This document shows positions 30,682 through 57,318 of a stretch of DNA of 64,000 bases, one piece after another. The notes under the pieces are model-generated. The model made no database searches, had not been told where the DNA came from, and saw only the letters and a program-made list of their open reading frames with translations. Position numbers and translations under genes: made by a program. The number at the start of each line of letters is the position of its first letter. Within the stretch, counting starts at the first letter, position 1. The stretch comes from a virus. Its lineage: Duplodnaviria > Heunggongvirae > Uroviricota > Caudoviricetes. The DNA lies in the IMG/VR virus record IMGVR_UViG_3300028584_001240; one strand, 5' to 3'.

Positions 30682-32349
30682 ATGTACAAGTCCATTATTA
30701 AATCGGATATCCAAAATTATCTGACATCAAAAAGCATCACGTTAACGGTTGATGTATCGTATTCAAGTTTTGAAAATTTTCATTATCAAACATCTATCCT
30801 TTTTCAATTAAATAAAAAAGGCGACTTTGACACGGCCAGCTTGATTGATTATTTATTGAAAACCACTCATTACGAAAACATTGAAATAACAGGGAAAGCT
30901 TTTTTGTCTTTCAAAATGAATTTAATGAATACACAAACAGTGCAAACAAAACTAAAAGAAACAGTGGTAGTCGATTACTGTGGTGTTAACGTTGCAAAAA
31001 AAATGCACATCGGACATATACGGTCTATGTTTATTGGCGACTTTGTTGTTCGGAGCCATCAGAATATGGGTGATGAAGTTATTTCATATAATCATATTGG
31101 TGATTGGGGAAATCAATTTGGTTTCCTACTCAATTACATTATGAAGAATGATTTAGCAAAGAACTTAGACAATCAAAAGCTCACTGAGTATTATAAGCTC
31201 GCTTATAGTGCCTATAACCTATCCAAAGAAAGTGATGATAATTCATTTGCACTTGAATCGGATAATGTTGCGTATAATCTTCAAAATAAACTTGATGATA
31301 AATTGCTAGCTTTATGGCAAAAATGTGTCGATATTAGTTTGATTGATCTAGAAGATACAATTAAAGAATTTAAGCTCAAATTGAACATTGCTGATACCAA
31401 GGGTGAAAGCTTCTTTGCTCAGTTCTGTCATGAAATCGTTGAAGACTTAATCAAAAAACAAATTGCCAGTGTTGATGATAATGGGTCGGTGTATGTTCAA
31501 CTTGAAAATAACAAGCTGGTCATCAAAAAAACGAATGGCACCTTTTTGTATGCTCTTTATGATTTAGCCGCTATAAAATGGCGGGTAGAACAACATAACC
31601 CAGATAAAATAGTGTATGTGGTTGATAAACGGCAGTCACTGCATTTTGAAACAATCTTCATGATTGCTAAAAAAGCAGGTTATGCAACCGATAAAAATAA
31701 GCTTGTCCATTTGGGTTTTGGTACCATCTTAGGTGAAGATAATAAGCCTATCAAAACAAAAACAGGAAAATCATTGTATTTGGATGATCTGTTAATGGAA
31801 GGTAAAAATGAATTATTAAAATCTACACACTTTACAAAGCTCTCAGGTGAGATACAAACTGAGTTGTTGAATAAAACGATTGTTGGTGGTCTTAAATTTC
31901 ATGATTTAAAATTAAGCAAGCATCAAGATTATGTGTTTGACTGGAAACATGTTTTAAACTTCTCTGGTGGTTCAGCTCCTTATCTTCAAAATGCTTCTGT
32001 TCGGATTGATTCAATTTTGTTTAAGAAATACAATATGAATGAACCTAAATTAATCATTGCTGATGATATGATTTTAAACACTCAGGAAAATTGTTTATTC
32101 TTTAATGTTTTAAAAACTCAAGAGATTATCAATGAAATGAGTGCTGATTATCAAAGTCATTATTTAACCACTCAACTGGTAAGCTTGTGTACTTTGTTCC
32201 ACAAGTATTACGAAAGTGAAAAAATATTAGGACATGAAGAAGAGTATAAGAAATTATGCTTGATCGCTGCAGTGAAAGATGTCATTGAGAAAGGCTGCAA
32301 TATCTTAGGTATTGAAACCTATCCATGTTTATCAAAAATGACTACTTAA
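30682..32349 (+). CDS. argS: Arginyl-tRNA synthetase
   Basis: VDYCGVNVAKKMHIGHIRS (HIGH), NHIGDWGNQFG, GESFF, DLAAI, YVVDKRQ.LHF, IKTKTG (KMSK-like), SAPYLQNA..RI.SI, C-terminal DALR-type region. Confidence 0.96.
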   Translation: MYKSIIKSDIQNYLTSKSITLTVDVSYSSFENFHYQTSILFQLNKKGDFDTASLIDYLLKTTHYENIEITGKAFLSFKMNLMNTQTVQTKLKETVVVDYCGVNVAKKMHIGHIRSMFIGDFVVRSHQNMGDEVISYNHIGDWGNQFGFLLNYIMKNDLAKNLDNQKLTEYYKLAYSAYNLSKESDDNSFALESDNVAYNLQNKLDDKLLALWQKCVDISLIDLEDTIKEFKLKLNIADTKGESFFAQFCHEIVEDLIKKQIASVDDNGSVYVQLENNKLVIKKTNGTFLYALYDLAAIKWRVEQHNPDKIVYVVDKRQSLHFETIFMIAKKAGYATDKNKLVHLGFGTILGEDNKPIKTKTGKSLYLDDLLMEGKNELLKSTHFTKLSGEIQTELLNKTIVGGLKFHDLKLSKHQDYVFDWKHVLNFSGGSAPYLQNASVRIDSILFKKYNMNEPKLIIADDMILNTQENCLFFNVLKTQEIINEMSADYQSHYLTTQLVSLCTLFHKYYESEKILGHEEEYKKLCLIAAVKDVIEKGCNILGIETYPCLSKMTT

Positions 32350-51772: not shown

Positions 51773-52900
51773 ATGGGAAAGCAAAATAAAAAGAAAATTG
51801 AAGAGTTTGAATCGAGCGAAATGCGATTCAAGCAATCTATTGCCAATCATTCAAACAAAGTAAAATTTGAAAACTCAACCAAACAAGAAGTGCCAGCCAT
51901 TAATGAAATTGAAACTGAGTTGCTTGCTTTCGCTGTTAATGATCCTGATGCTTTCAAATACACCCTGAAATCAAGCAATCGTGACAAAAAAGTCAAACTT
52001 TTGGCAAAATTTCTTTTTTCAAAATACAAAACCCCAAAAATTCTTGAACAAGTATGGGATGGCCCAGCCATTCCAGATCGTGCCCACACCAAAAAGAAAT
52101 CATCAGCAATTCGTTATCGTAAATGGTTCGTGTGTGCCGCCACAGGTGGCTCTCTTTACAAGGAACATTTGAAACCATTCTTGACAAAAAAAGAAGGGGC
52201 TAATTTTGTTAGTTGTCCATTTGATTTGACCATCGATCAAGCCATTGTTTACTCTATTGCATTGGCAGAAAGTGATCGTGCCGGTGCTGCATTGCGTATC
52301 GCTAAATCAAAATTAAATGAAAAAAACTATGAAACTGAGTTCTGGAAGAATGTTATCAAGTTCTTTGCCCAAGAGGGTAAAACACCAGAAACCGTAGAAC
52401 AAATTAACGACTTGGTTGACTTTATCAATGCTCAAAAGCTTGAAAATAACAACTTTAATATTTTTGGTAATGGTTGGACACTTGCCTCGCTTATCAAAAG
52501 AACACATGATTGGCACTATGAACTTCGTCGTGCTAAAAAAATGGGTACCTTTACTTGGGATGGTCATGATTTCAAAAATTTCAGCTTTACTAAGCGTAAA
52601 GATGAATACAATGCTGAGGAATGGACACTGACTCAAATTAAATCATCCAAAGAATTGCTGGAGGAAGGTAAGCAACAACACCATTGTGTATTTGGTTACA
52701 AAAACTCTTGCATTGATGGCTCAACATCCATTTGGTCTTTGAAAATGAACGGAAAACGAAAAGTGACCATTGAAGTGCGTTCTAACTATAACATTGTACA
52801 AGCTCGTGGTTTTGCCAACAGAAAAACAACAGGTGAAGAAGACAACTTTATTAGACTTTGGGCTAATGAAAACAATCTTAGCCTCAACTATCGTTATTAA
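51773..52900 (+). CDS. PcfJ domain-containing protein
   Basis: RTHDWH, ELLEEGKQQHHCVFGY...C..G..SIWSL, TIEV, IVQARGFANR. Confidence 0.85.
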   Translation: MGKQNKKKIEEFESSEMRFKQSIANHSNKVKFENSTKQEVPAINEIETELLAFAVNDPDAFKYTLKSSNRDKKVKLLAKFLFSKYKTPKILEQVWDGPAIPDRAHTKKKSSAIRYRKWFVCAATGGSLYKEHLKPFLTKKEGANFVSCPFDLTIDQAIVYSIALAESDRAGAALRIAKSKLNEKNYETEFWKNVIKFFAQEGKTPETVEQINDLVDFINAQKLENNNFNIFGNGWTLASLIKRTHDWHYELRRAKKMGTFTWDGHDFKNFSFTKRKDEYNAEEWTLTQIKSSKELLEEGKQQHHCVFGYKNSCIDGSTSIWSLKMNGKRKVTIEVRSNYNIVQARGFANRKTTGEEDNFIRLWANENNLSLNYRY

Positions 52901-53382: not shown

Positions 53383-53400
53383 AAGACTCCTAGGAGTCTT
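53383..53400. terminator. Perfect 18-bp palindrome, probable bidirectional terminator overlapping the AlaRS stop
   Basis: AAGACTCCTAGGAGTCTT flanked by A- and T-rich tracts. Confidence 0.7.
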
Positions 53401-54265
53401 CTTTTTTTCCAAACACAATAACATATTCATCCATTCGGCCCACATTAAAGCCATAGGTATCCATCCAAAATATATTATCTTTATCTTTAAAGCGTTTATG
53501 GTTTCTTTTCCTCATATAAGTAGAATAAGCTTTTTCTTGATTGAAACGAATTCGATCAAAAAATTCATTGCTTATTTGACTACCATGAAAAATAGATTCA
53601 GTGATTAGTTTCTTCAAAATGTATTCTTTCTTATTGTGACCAAGTAATACACCATCGTCTATCAATAATAAAGCAGTTTCTTCAAGGATTTGAAGCTTAC
53701 TTTTCGATGTTAAGCTTCCAGTCACTTCAAGCAGTCTTTCAAGTCCAAAACCCACATCTATGCAAGTATCCATTGTATTAACAATATTCCCTATCTCAAC
53801 ATAGTTCTTGTAAAACTCTGTGCAATATCCACCAATACTACCATCTGACCAGACACATTCAGGATCTAAACGTATTTCAACGCCATATTCAGAATAAAGG
53901 TCTTTCCAGTCTTCATATTTATCAGGGTGAATAGTTACATAGTCTGGAATAATACCCAGCTTATTAACAAAGGAATACATGAAATCAATAGCTTTTTTAA
54001 GTGTCCATTGTCTAAATGAAAATAAACCTATCATTTCAAATTTTAAAAAGTGTGTGCCATCACCTATTTCGTCTAGGTCATTAATTCTTAGGCATTGCTG
54101 GATGTTAGTAAATGTGTTGGTGTATTCTAGGTTAGAATATAAGGGTTTAAATTGTTGCATACCAGATGTGGTAAACAGAGTTGTATCGTCAGGACTTTTG
54201 ACAGATGAATTTATATGAAAGTCCAATTCATATAATCTGGAATGGTCTTTGTATGTTTCGATAAT
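53390..54265 (-). CDS. Alanyl-tRNA synthetase N-terminal catalytic core (no editing or C-Ala domains); start uncertain, may need a -1 frameshift or ATT reinitiation from the leader
   Basis: DDTTLFTTSGMQQFK, QQCLR.NDLDEIGD.TH...FEMIG.FSF, W.DG..GGYCTE, VEIGNIV, IDVGFGLERL. The frame stays open and AlaRS-like upstream of the TTG at 54226, which has no SD. Confidence 0.85.
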   Translation of the reverse strand: MIETYKDHSRLYELDFHINSSVKSPDDTTLFTTSGMQQFKPLYSNLEYTNTFTNIQQCLRINDLDEIGDGTHFLKFEMIGLFSFRQWTLKKAIDFMYSFVNKLGIIPDYVTIHPDKYEDWKDLYSEYGVEIRLDPECVWSDGSIGGYCTEFYKNYVEIGNIVNTMDTCIDVGFGLERLLEVTGSLTSKSKLQILEETALLLIDDGVLLGHNKKEYILKKLITESIFHGSQISNEFFDRIRFNQEKAYSTYMRKRNHKRFKDKDNIFWMDTYGFNVGRMDEYVIVFGKKEDS

Positions 54266-54288
54266 TAGATTGCGTTTAGCTGTGACAT
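54265..54288 (-). CDS. Ala-containing leader MSQLNAI overlapping the AlaRS frame
   Basis: AGGAGG-N5-ATG TCA CAG CTA AAC GCA ATC TAA. Confidence 0.7.
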   Translation of the reverse strand: MSQLNAI

Positions 54289-54321
54289 AGCTTCCTCCTA
54301 TTTATAAAAGTTGTCTATAAC

Positions 54322-54351
54322 ATAATAACATTAAAAACCTTATTATGTCAA
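54322..54351 (-). promoter_or_regulatory. Promoter of the Ala leader/AlaRS unit
   Basis: TTGACA-N18-TATTAT with TGn extension; near-copy of the argS promoter. Confidence 0.7.
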
Positions 54352-54416
54352 TAAACAAAACAAAATTGAAGAAAAAATAAAGACTCTAGTTAAATAGAGT
54401 CATCATCACAATTAAA

Positions 54417-55616
54417 TTATTTATCAAAATTAAGAATGCTTAATAATTGCATAGTCATATTACTAATCTTACCATCAGGGCTTTGTTTAATTACTCGTTT
54501 TTTAAAATAATCAATAAAATGAATATAAGCTTTATCTAATGTTTCAAAGTTGTGTTCGTAAACAACGTCTCTACCGTCCTTAACCTGAACATAGATATCC
54601 AGTTTAAAATCAATTTTAAAGCTTTGTTTGTTATCGAAGTAAATTTCGGAATCAGAACTCACACTGAACAAATCAAAATGTGTAAGAAACTTTTTTTCAT
54701 CACCCAACGTAGGTAAAAATAAAGAAAAATGATTAACAATAAGGCCATTAATGGTGTATTGGTATAAAATCATAGCATTGATTAATTGTAATAAATTCTT
54801 CGACCAATCATTAACCAATAGAAGGTCGAACAACTTTTCAGAGTGTTTTAAATTTTTTACTGGAAAAGTGACCCTCTCATTCCCATAAAACTTGCCATTA
54901 TTATTGAGTTTTCGTGACATATCAACGGTAGGCTTACTGAGTAGTGTCCTCAATGGCTTGTCTCTATTCATAACCGATGATAACATAATTCCATCATAAT
55001 GCTCATTCATATATTGAGCGATGTTTTTTTGACTATAATCTTTATTTAAGAACTCTCGATAATGTGGGGCTTTAAGATTATACAAAGTATTAATAATTGT
55101 TTGAATTAAATCAATATTCTCCTTTGTGTATTCAATATTATGAGTTTGTTTAAAATAGTGTGTAATTTTGTCATTTAAAAGAACAATCAATTTTTCAATT
55201 TTCATGGTTCTATCGAAAGAGAAATCCAAACCAGAAATAGAGAACTTAACATTATTTGTATCATCTACGACAATATGCAAAACATTGAGAATAAATACAC
55301 TTACTTTATTATCTTTAAAAGCGAAGGAAACAGTAAACTTTTCACCACGACTACCTGCAGTAGTTGATTCATTAAAAATAGATAACAGATGCTCAATATA
55401 ATCAGTTAATGTGGCAGATTGAGATTTTTTGATACCTAAAAAAAGAAAACTGACAATTTTATTAAGAGTTGCATTAAATGAAATAAGATATCCACATTCA
55501 TTTTTGATAGTTGAAAAATAGTCATTAACAATAGGGATTTCTACACTATCAAATTTCTTTTCTAATAGCAATTGTTTAAAATTTTTCTTTGATTTCTGTA
55601 AGTATTCAAATAACAT
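54417..55616 (-). CDS. Hypothetical protein; C-terminal-motif family (variant)
   Basis: AAGGAG SD; ends LLSILNF-DK. Confidence 0.8.
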   Translation of the reverse strand: MLFEYLQKSKKNFKQLLLEKKFDSVEIPIVNDYFSTIKNECGYLISFNATLNKIVSFLFLGIKKSQSATLTDYIEHLLSIFNESTTAGSRGEKFTVSFAFKDNKVSVFILNVLHIVVDDTNNVKFSISGLDFSFDRTMKIEKLIVLLNDKITHYFKQTHNIEYTKENIDLIQTIINTLYNLKAPHYREFLNKDYSQKNIAQYMNEHYDGIMLSSVMNRDKPLRTLLSKPTVDMSRKLNNNGKFYGNERVTFPVKNLKHSEKLFDLLLVNDWSKNLLQLINAMILYQYTINGLIVNHFSLFLPTLGDEKKFLTHFDLFSVSSDSEIYFDNKQSFKIDFKLDIYVQVKDGRDVVYEHNFETLDKAYIHFIDYFKKRVIKQSPDGKISNMTMQLLSILNFDK

Positions 55617-55626
55617 GACAACTCCT

Positions 55627-56325
55627 TTAAATATTAATCATTGCTGATAGTGCGTGTGAATCTTTTTCGTTCTTGATAAAATCTTCATAAGTCACTTCAT
55701 GGTTTCTAAAATAAAGGGCATGAACTACTTTCTTAGGTTCTTTAATAAGATCATGACACAAAGATTCAAAGTCATAAGGTAGATCCGCAACATCACGAGT
55801 TTTGCCATCTACTTTAATTCGAGTTCTAACATTCGTGATAATTCGCTCATTTTTCTCATCAACTTCAAAACCAGAGTTAAAGAATATATGATTAACAAAT
55901 TCGATTTTGTAATCATCATTCAAGTAATACAGTTTTTTAATCAACAATTTTTTATTGATTAGTGTGCTATCCATCCAAAAATTATAATAGCTATGGTCAC
56001 TAGGCTTCCCATCTGAACGAAGTGGGAAATATTCAAACTCAACAACTCGTTGATTATCAACTTCAATTTCAATATCAAATGTTGAAACTGTCACACAACC
56101 ATTGTAGGCAGGTGTGCAGGTTTTAAATATTTTAATAAGATAAGATTTCCCACCTTCAAAAATAGGCTTTAACTGAGTCATAAAATTAATAATCTTCGCA
56201 TTAACTTCCTGATAATCCATGTCATCATTAATATCAGCAATCATCTCATCCCATTTTTTACTTGGAAACTTACCAAAGAAACGTTTTGGTAATTCATATT
56301 TCTTTTTTACTTGATAATCAATCAT
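55627..56325 (-). CDS. Hypothetical protein; C-terminal-motif family
   Basis: Start MIDYQ; ends LSAMINI. Confidence 0.8.
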   Translation of the reverse strand: MIDYQVKKKYELPKRFFGKFPSKKWDEMIADINDDMDYQEVNAKIINFMTQLKPIFEGGKSYLIKIFKTCTPAYNGCVTVSTFDIEIEVDNQRVVEFEYFPLRSDGKPSDHSYYNFWMDSTLINKKLLIKKLYYLNDDYKIEFVNHIFFNSGFEVDEKNERIITNVRTRIKVDGKTRDVADLPYDFESLCHDLIKEPKKVVHALYFRNHEVTYEDFIKNEKDSHALSAMINI

Positions 56326-56408
56326 AAGTATAAATATCCCATGTTTATAAATTGACGACAGTATACCATAAAAGACTGTAAATAACAAATAAATTATGTT
56401 AAGTTAAC

Positions 56409-56697: not shown

Positions 56698-57318
56698 TTA
56701 AAGATCTTTGTTGTCTAACCAAGCAAAAAAAGATTTAATTGAGAACGGTGATTCTGAATAACTGTTATTCACTAAAAATGTATGACAACCCATAAACTTA
56801 CATTTACTAATATTTTGACTGTTATCATCTACAACTAATATTTCCATTGGGTTAATGGTTTCAAAATTATCTTCATACCAAGTAATAACATGTTCAAAGG
56901 CTTCTTGATCAGGCTTAGCCTTCCCTATTTCAAATGAATAGAAACAGTGGTCAACGTGTTTTGCCAAATACTTCTCAATCGGCTTAGCATACTCTTCTGA
57001 AAGATTGGAAAGCAATACAACGGTGTAATCCTTTCTCAACTCATCCAGTTTGCTTCCGATATCTTTTAAATAAGGTGTGATATTTTTTAATTCTAATTGA
57101 AGTTCCAACTGCATACTATCAAGATTTTCTGCAATAAATTCATCATTCACATCGACAGGTATTAAACTACGCCAGTCAACATTTTTTTCAGTCATTATTT
57201 TTCGACGTAATTCTCTTGGATTAAGACCAACAGAACTTAAAAATTTACCATGTGGATTACGAACAGTTGACGTTAACAATGTTCCGTAGCAGTCAAATAT
57301 AATCAGTTTCTTTTTCAT
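56698..57318 (-). CDS. HAD-superfamily hydrolase
   Basis: LIIFDCYGTL, LLSN, KAKPD, VVDDNSQN. Confidence 0.88.
   Translation of the reverse strand: MKKKLIIFDCYGTLLTSTVRNPHGKFLSSVGLNPRELRRKIMTEKNVDWRSLIPVDVNDEFIAENLDSMQLELQLELKNITPYLKDIGSKLDELRKDYTVVLLSNLSEEYAKPIEKYLAKHVDHCFYSFEIGKAKPDQEAFEHVITWYEDNFETINPMEILVVDDNSQNISKCKFMGCHTFLVNNSYSESPFSIKSFFAWLDNKDL

Follow-up and report, generated by a model that had tools for sequence, protein, structure and literature searches.

Few recoding sites of bacteria and phages are known to serve as regulatory sensors, the classic case being prfB, the gene of release factor 2 (RF2). In prfB, a short first open reading frame (ORF) lies near the start, the functional protein is encoded wholly in another frame that is reached by a +1 shift, decoding of the A-site codon at the shift relies on the product of the gene itself, and a shortage of that product's activity raises shifting (reviewed in PMC5009743). 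In the present study, a gene of similar layout was analysed in a 64,000-nucleotide (nt) stretch of the virus record IMGVR_UViG_3300028584_001240 (the whole stretch is called the window), in which it is read on the minus strand and encodes a relative of alanyl-tRNA synthetase (AlaRS) of about 300 amino acids, termed mini-AlaRS. Comparison with homologous loci strongly supports a conserved programmed -1 frameshift in this gene, which we regard as highly probable, and expression gated by this frameshift and responsive to the level of charged tRNA-Ala is probably the best explanation of its arrangement. The mini-AlaRS gene shares with prfB the short first ORF, the functional protein in the other frame and an A-site codon linked to the gene's own product. 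Unlike in prfB, the shift would go in the -1 and not the +1 direction, an Ala sense codon would take the place of UGA as the sensor, the product, a synthetase, would act indirectly through tRNA charging, and the site has no Shine-Dalgarno (SD) sequence 3 nt before it.

A mechanistic precedent is hungry-codon frameshifting (Gallant; Barak et al. 1996; Caliskan et al. 2017, in PMC8915115), in which a single P-site peptidyl-tRNA slips at a vacant A site and decoding resumes in the -1 frame, an established pathway when aminoacyl-tRNA is limiting. Unlike the mini-AlaRS site, it was described in starvation experiments and, on dnaX mRNA, as an alternative regime, and it has so far been treated mainly as a starvation error; no natural gene that depends on it for expression or sensing was found in the literature. 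Sites of the dnaX type (A AAA AAG) and the coronavirus type (U UUA AAC) share with mini-AlaRS the -1 direction and, in one phage clade of homologs with GGAC at the site, a hairpin within 5-9 nt downstream. In U UUA AAC, it is in the A site that tRNA-Asn re-pairs from AAC to AAA. In contrast to both types, the mini-AlaRS site lacks a tandem heptamer, so that only one tRNA can re-pair; it lies at codon 2-12 instead of deep in the gene; and its frame 0 gives a tiny peptide and no second functional protein. In leader-peptide attenuation and T-box control, the charged-tRNA level is read at the 5' end of the gene, as it might be here through a cognate codon in a short leader ORF; unlike these systems, a change of frame would replace the choice between terminator and antiterminator, and a single cognate codon would be involved. 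The nearest described protein is the mini-AlaRS of Tupanvirus (PMC10036535). Compared with this protein and with engineered N-terminal fragments of E. coli AlaRS (PDB 3hxu), the present protein is shorter (~300 versus ~440-520 amino acids), keeps the catalytic core with just the first helices of the tRNA-recognition domain, and is a putative enzyme. The literature yielded no description of a frameshift in an AlaRS-like gene or in any other aminoacyl-tRNA synthetase gene, and no such case is mentioned in the part of the 2016 recoding review (Atkins, PMC5009743) drawn on here.

The features of the locus, with their coordinates in the window, are as follows.

54322..54351, minus strand: promoter-like site TTGACA-18 nt-TATTAT with a TG extension, matching at 11 of 12 positions
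54294..54299, minus strand: SD sequence AGGAGG, followed after 5 nt by ATG (54288..54286)
54265..54288, minus strand: frame-0 mini-ORF ATG TCA CAG CTA AAC GCA ATC TAA, encoding MSQLNAI, with the stop TAA at 54267..54265
54272..54280, minus strand: conserved recoding motif GCTAAACGC, read (CT)A AAC GC(A) in frame 0 and GCT AAA CGC in the -1 frame
54276..54274, minus strand: AAC, proposed to slip to AAA (54277..54275) with GCA (54273..54271) in the A site, decoding resuming at CGC (54274..54272)
53390..54274, minus strand: mini-AlaRS ORF in the -1 frame, 294 codons from CGC to the stop at 53392..53390
54224..54226, minus strand: TTG taken as the start by gene callers (278-residue form); it lacks an SD, and a start here would cost the protein its conserved first helix
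53380..53403, minus strand: intrinsic-terminator-like hairpin overlapping the stop codon

An earlier description made from the letters of this DNA (the sequence-only reading) had assigned the SD sequence to the ATG of the seven-codon mini-ORF, and had placed the AlaRS frame at -1 to it, without a nearby ATG and with an SD-less TTG at 54226. The coordinates and frames were reproduced when the strand was read again. SD-like 4-mers stand upstream of 35 of the 61 window ORFs, and the spacing between SD and ATG is also kept in the homologs. The long -1 frame is open only from 54301, an in-frame TAA lying at 54304..54302; its translation begins IGGSYVTAKRNLIIETYKDHS..., and the TTG at 54226 is its first ATG, GTG or TTG codon. 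This TTG is probably not the real start of mini-AlaRS, judging from the first helix (NLIIETYK...), which would be lost under it and whose counterpart is retained by in-frame homologs (MNITEEYK...). The predicted trans-frame product is MSQLN joined to RNLIIETY..., with a length of 299 amino acids. The unit looks monocistronic because the preceding gene has a terminator-like hairpin of its own at 54401..54382.

A protein search returned 992 relatives of 166-531 amino acids, and the DNA of 75 genome, 80 metagenome and 74 viral-contig loci was collected and anchored on the SPD..TLF..GM block. The string 'GG[SC]Y[VD]TAKRN', which is the translated SD+tATG region, is present in every relative with a long called N-terminus and first suggested a conserved nucleotide signal. 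The frame break that the sequence-only reading had proposed to look for in homologs was present in 137 of 226 homologous loci (135 directly, and L200 and L201 on inspection), and 52 frameshift-type sequences with less than 80% amino acid identity to each other formed a non-redundant set. Throughout, an ATG (or GTG) opens an ORF of 3-17 codons and the mini-AlaRS ORF lies in the -1 frame; the start codon is preceded by a good SD or, in SD-less lineages, by an A-rich region. As at programmed -1 sites, the -1-frame ORF overlaps a short upstream ORF and is without an independent start. Close relatives (L076-L080, L157), assembled independently, carry the same out-of-frame SD and ATG, and the layout is kept down to about 45% amino acid identity with all ORFs intact. 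The carriers include huge-phage and other viral contigs, plasmids and chromosomes of Rhizobium and Neorhizobium, Phyllobacterium, Inquilinus, Caulobacteraceae and Reyranella. In a quick protein tree, the frameshift forms are spread over the whole family, and ordinary in-frame forms, starting M-[NK]-[IDN]-[IT]..EYK, are interspersed among them.

At least 39 different leader peptides were observed, for example MSPRDA (Rhizobium), MSQLNAI (window clade), MKTKEQSLDAL, MKLDA and (GTG)DAI, each followed by a stop. All of these peptides end with [L/R/Q/fM]-[D/N]-A, then 0-8 codons and a stop, and they are otherwise unrelated; the slip codon stands at codon position 2-12, most often 5 (40 of 52), and the frame-0 stop follows it by 1-9 codons at no fixed position. 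An ATG, GTG or TTG upstream in the long frame is absent in 37 of the 52 sequences, and in the other 15 it stands at scattered positions 8-79 codons upstream. The RefSeq starts of two Rhizobium strains differ, one being an ATG that overlaps the SD and the other a TTG 22 codons upstream; both are arbitrary extensions. A variant of the layout was observed in L111 and L114, in which two bases (AC) are missing right after GGACGC relative to L106 and L113. These 'repaired' loci read MKTKEQSLDALVTEEY in one frame, so that the leader MKTKEQSLDA runs into LVTEEYK, and apart from this the protein hardly differs from the frameshift form; this single-frame reading shows that the leader peptide can serve as an N-terminus.

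The only conserved part of the leader in the 52 non-redundant homologs is G-C-[T/G/A]-R-R-A-C-G-C, with five sequences carrying TGTGGACGC. Within it, ACGC is invariant (52/52), the purine pair before AC is GG in 33 and AA in 19 sequences, and AGAC and GAAC never occur. The sequence-only reading had proposed a check for a conserved A-AAC-GCN; the Ala codon does always come next, and AAAC is present in 19 of the 52 sequences, the other 33 having GGAC. The start frame always reads [Leu/Arg/Gln/fMet]-[Asp/Asn]-Ala, as CTG, CGG, CAG or GTG followed by GAC GCN, or as CTA AAC GCN, with a variable E-site codon (CTA, CGG, CTG, CAG or the start GTG) and a variable third base of the Ala codon (GCA 31, GCC 18, GCG 2, GCT 1). 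The long frame reads GGA or AAA and then CGC at the motif. All 51 of 51 sequences have CGC as this Arg codon, and three other invariant Arg columns use six codons, none in more than 16 of 51. The frozen synonymous positions are the A of GGA or AAA and the last C of CGC, both of which are non-synonymous in the start frame; as in programmed -1 sites, the nucleotides of the shift site are thus conserved beyond coding needs.

The base before the slip codon covaries with the slip codon, as G|GAC or A|AAC, the pattern that -1 slippage of a single tRNA would require. After a slip of one base, tRNA-Asp would face GGA and tRNA-Asn would face AAA, and pairing would be lost at the wobble position alone; AGAC, which was never seen, would break the pairing at position 1. 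The site has the form N NNR RAC GCN in place of the canonical X XXY YYZ heptamer, only the tRNA on RAC can re-pair, at two of three positions, and such a site fits slippage of a single tRNA in the P site. In L117 and L123, the site reads G-GAA-GCC-TGA (leader MSPREA), with Glu for Asp at the slip codon and the Ala codon kept, and the long-frame Arg codon CGC has become the Ser codon AGC.

The product matches PF01411, the class IIc core of AlaRS, with an E-value of 1.4e-20 (73.8 bits against a cut-off of 30.3) over profile positions 22-180 of 552, which is the N-terminal catalytic part only. In a phmmer search of PDB chains, residues 32-164, 171-207 and 209-244 aligned with AlaRS residues 26-175, 214-250 and 279-314; these stretches take in the class II core with its motif 3 (IDVGFGLER) and, at 209-244, the start of the tRNA-recognition domain (its first helices). 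The residues invariant among the relatives are R72, N172, D182, G184, G186 and R189, and the motif 2 Arg, the motif 3 GxGxER and the core fold of class IIc are all present. An AlphaFold2 model of the post-shift protein had a mean pLDDT of 90.6, and its best Foldseek matches were catalytic fragments of AlaRS (E. coli 3hxu/3hy1, and 9jc7; TMq 0.67-0.73, E 1e-14). Since the protein ends at about 300 amino acids, it has no editing domain and no C-Ala domain. By these sequence and model comparisons, the gene is a stand-alone mini-AlaRS paralogue consisting of the catalytic core only, and not the housekeeping AlaRS of ~870 amino acids; the identity given in the sequence-only reading, AlaRS, has to be narrowed to such a core-only relative of about 300 residues. 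The RefSeq name of a Rhizobium homolog is 'alanine--tRNA ligase-related protein'. Charging of tRNA-Ala by the 300-residue core is a putative activity, to which adjacency to tRNA-Ala genes lends indirect support.

Several observations concern alanine. Relative to the ORFs of the same loci, the Ala content of the family has a ratio of 0.11 in AT-rich frameshift forms, 0.31 in in-frame AT-rich forms and 0.32 in GC-rich forms, and the ratios of all other amino acids are 0.6-2.5; there is no depletion of Gly, Pro or Arg, whose codons are GC-rich as well. Among the AT-rich frameshift proteins (n=41), 15 have no Ala past the site and 14 have one, and the window protein has three (1.0%, versus 4.3% in window ORFs). 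At the slip, the A-site codon is always an Ala codon, with CGC after the slip. In many AT-rich loci, the mini-AlaRS gene lies in a tRNA array directly after tRNA-Ala; after de-duplication, tRNA-Ala accounts for 6 of 14 nearest upstream tRNAs (p=0.04 against the array's own Ala-rich background). The Ala-poor product, the tRNA-Ala neighbours and the retention of the Ala codon in L117/L123 fit an enzyme that would be needed when Ala-tRNA is scarce. Sensing of Ala-tRNA is, on the whole, the more probable and the best reading of why the frameshift exists. The invariant A-site Ala codon and the Ala-poor product further suggest that the efficiency of the shift might respond to the activity of its own product.

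The tRNA arrays around the homologs (196 genes) have an unusual make-up, with 44 tRNA-Glu, 39 tRNA-Ala, 26 tRNA-Gly and 15 tRNA-Asp, the last being the tRNA proposed to slip. ARAGORN also listed two odd tRNAs in arrays beside homologs (L100:627-699 and L142:712-783), whose anticodons have the unusual lengths of 2 nt (tg, within a 6-nt loop) and 4 nt (agac). tRNAs with such anticodons can change the reading frame.

Herein, we propose the following mechanism for the expression of mini-AlaRS. Ribosomes would start at the SD-served ATG at 54288 and read M-S-Q-L-N, which places peptidyl-tRNA-Asn on AAC in the P site and the Ala codon GCA in the A site. When Ala-tRNA(Ala) arrives quickly, frame 0 would continue and end two codons later, yielding only a peptide of 7 residues. 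When the A site stays empty, the P-site tRNA would slip one base back (AAC to AAA; GAC to GGA in other clades), CGC (Arg) would be read, and the almost alanine-free enzyme would be made. In other words, a feedback loop with the logic of RF2/prfB would operate, but with a sense codon, in the -1 direction and with an aminoacyl-tRNA synthetase as the product. The slip from AAC to AAA with GCA waiting had been advanced in the sequence-only reading, and it gains support from the invariant slip and Ala codons, the frozen CGC, the covarying preceding base and the Ala-poor product. The comparison points to a conserved recoding site with an out-of-frame start, and from it we infer the slip mechanism, the residue at the junction and the regulation by the Ala-tRNA level. 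A wider proposal, to which we would give about even chances, is that mini-AlaRS is a nearly Ala-free emergency enzyme, carried mainly on large phages and plasmids, often with a tRNA-Ala of its own, and switched on by hungry-codon -1 frameshifting at its cognate codon.

The folding of the 50 nt past the site was scored against shuffled sequences. The mean z-score was -3.3 in the phage-like AT-rich GGAC clade (71% below -2), -1.5 in the GC-rich clade and -0.2 in the in-frame homologs, which served as controls and showed no excess folding; in the AAAC clade of the window, no downstream structure was detectable in these 50 nt (mean z -0.6). The phage GGAC clade has a hairpin GTCACAG-N16-CTGTGAC of 7 bp, starting 5 nt past the Ala codon. 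All 7 pairs are formed in 11 of 11 sequences, three pairs show compensatory double changes (GC/CG/AU, AU/GC, GC/AU), and the observed covariation was reached by none of 500 shuffles. For the GC-rich clade, RNAalifold gave no consensus structure, and a 9-bp helix proposed by hand was rejected, being just 67% paired. A role of the SD as a shared -1 stimulator was likewise rejected, since the SD stands 16-18 nt from the slip codon in the SD-bearing clades and the AT-rich phage clade is without one. The site of the window has the better re-pairing context, A-AAC.

Several points weigh against frameshifting controlled by Ala-tRNA. The support is comparative throughout, the trans-frame product is a predicted one, and tRNA charging by the 300-residue core is a putative activity. 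The site departs from the canonical X XXY YYZ heptamer, only positions 1 and 2 would re-pair after the slip (A:U A:U, or G:C G:U), and the wobble position would present a purine-purine clash. Without a downstream structure in the clade of the window, the efficiency of the shift may be low. The role of the Ala codon as a sensor is deduced from one frozen base, the C of CGC, together with the Ala depletion, and this C could be kept for the -1-frame codon CGC. Accordingly, the frameshift might be real but constitutive, setting a fixed low enzyme level or acting as a ribosome sink, with GC after RAC retained for the -1-frame codon CGC or by contact between mRNA and ribosome, and the Ala codon not serving as a sensor. 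All of the evidence for conservation of the recoding site applies equally to this explanation, and one clade has a downstream hairpin as in classical structure-driven -1 frameshifting. However, a constitutive shift gives no reason for the strong and specific Ala depletion or the link with tRNA-Ala genes, and L117/L123 keeps GCC yet changes CGC to AGC; we consider it unlikely. The same conserved motif also fits another route into the -1 frame, either doublet reading of GC by tRNA-Ala (...N-A-N...) or out-of-frame binding of CGC by the abundant tRNA-Arg(ICG), and the in-frame variant L111/L114 reads ...S-L-D-A-L-V-T..., that is, Asp-Ala and then the long frame. Doublet reading, however, would need plentiful Ala-tRNA, at odds with an Ala-free product, and leaves unexplained why the base before RAC must match (GG or AA only), so that this route seems quite improbable.

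Other explanations dispense with a ribosomal frameshift. The 7-codon leader might be followed by termination and reinitiation at an ATT (54265..54263) overlapping the TAA, or at the ATC at 54262, giving MIETYK..., and the sequence-only reading had named the TAATT as an alternative. For the window alone this is possible, as the TAATT overlap is present; in Rhizobium, the TGA overlaps CTG ATC, and the in-frame homologs (MNITEEYK) start at this position, the MIETYK... product being of similar length. Across the homologs, however, the arrangement is not conserved: the frame-0 stop varies, and in several homologs, such as L144 (CGC GTA AGT GTC) and L106 (CGC ACT TTA GTC), the stop has nothing like a start codon at it or close by. 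The lack of conservation of the leader peptide, its length and its stop position argues against reinitiation at the ATT, which also offers no explanation for the RRACGC frozen ahead of the stop, for the covariation seen as G|GAC or A|AAC, or for the covarying hairpin; we therefore judge it improbable. That the locus is an assembly error or a pseudogene, or truly starts at the TTG at 54226, has very little probability. Gene callers do give 278-residue proteins from TTG for close relatives, but the layout is identical in independent assemblies and at 137 loci with intact ORFs, and the TTG has no SD and would remove the conserved helix; the indel or sequencing error that the sequence-only reading had allowed for is excluded by the conservation across phyla. 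Transcriptional slippage or RNA editing is unlikely, as the motif has runs of just 3 nt (AAA or GGG).

If a programmed frameshift responsive to Ala-tRNA is the correct explanation, mini-AlaRS would bring Ala-tRNA charging back after a collapse of the host supply, as in infection or an attack on tRNA-Ala or AlaRS, and its gene would be the first natural aminoacyl-tRNA synthetase gene in which the enzyme's own cognate codon, when hungry, switches on translation by a -1 frameshift. A site conserved this deeply would demonstrate that the hungry-codon 'error' serves cells and phages as a direct read-out of tRNA charging, and with an Ala codon that gates an Ala-free AlaRS core, the long-standing question of whether hungry-codon shifting is ever adaptive becomes directly testable. 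The 300-residue core is also a candidate for the smallest natural alanyl-tRNA synthetase. For annotation, more than 130 homologs now carry arbitrary starts, such as a TTG 25 codons past the opening of the frame, an upstream TTG or a chance ATG.

With regard to the genomic context, a huge phage or some unusually large element may be the source of the window. Its ORFs mostly lack a Pfam match, it uses SD sequences, and megablast against phage GenBank returned no match. The relative L157 (IMGVR_UViG_3300031133_000383), which is 72% identical, lies on a 437-kb contig given as a 98%-complete virus by IMG/VR and CheckV, where the mini-AlaRS gene is the sole PF01411 match; the relative L076 (Ga0308158_10000001), with 94% amino acid identity, lies on a metagenome contig of 1.86 Mb. 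The neighbouring genes in the window are as follows.

51773..52900, plus strand: PcfJ-like protein
54417..55616 and 55627..56388: two ORFs directly upstream of mini-AlaRS, without a Pfam match
56698..57318, minus strand: HAD-family hydrolase

The window also encodes its own ArgRS (30682..32349). On Rhizobium plasmids, in L156 (NC_012852.1, 2195-3951) and L231, mini-AlaRS adjoins toxin-antitoxin modules (Phd/VapC, and RES with an Xre-like antitoxin).

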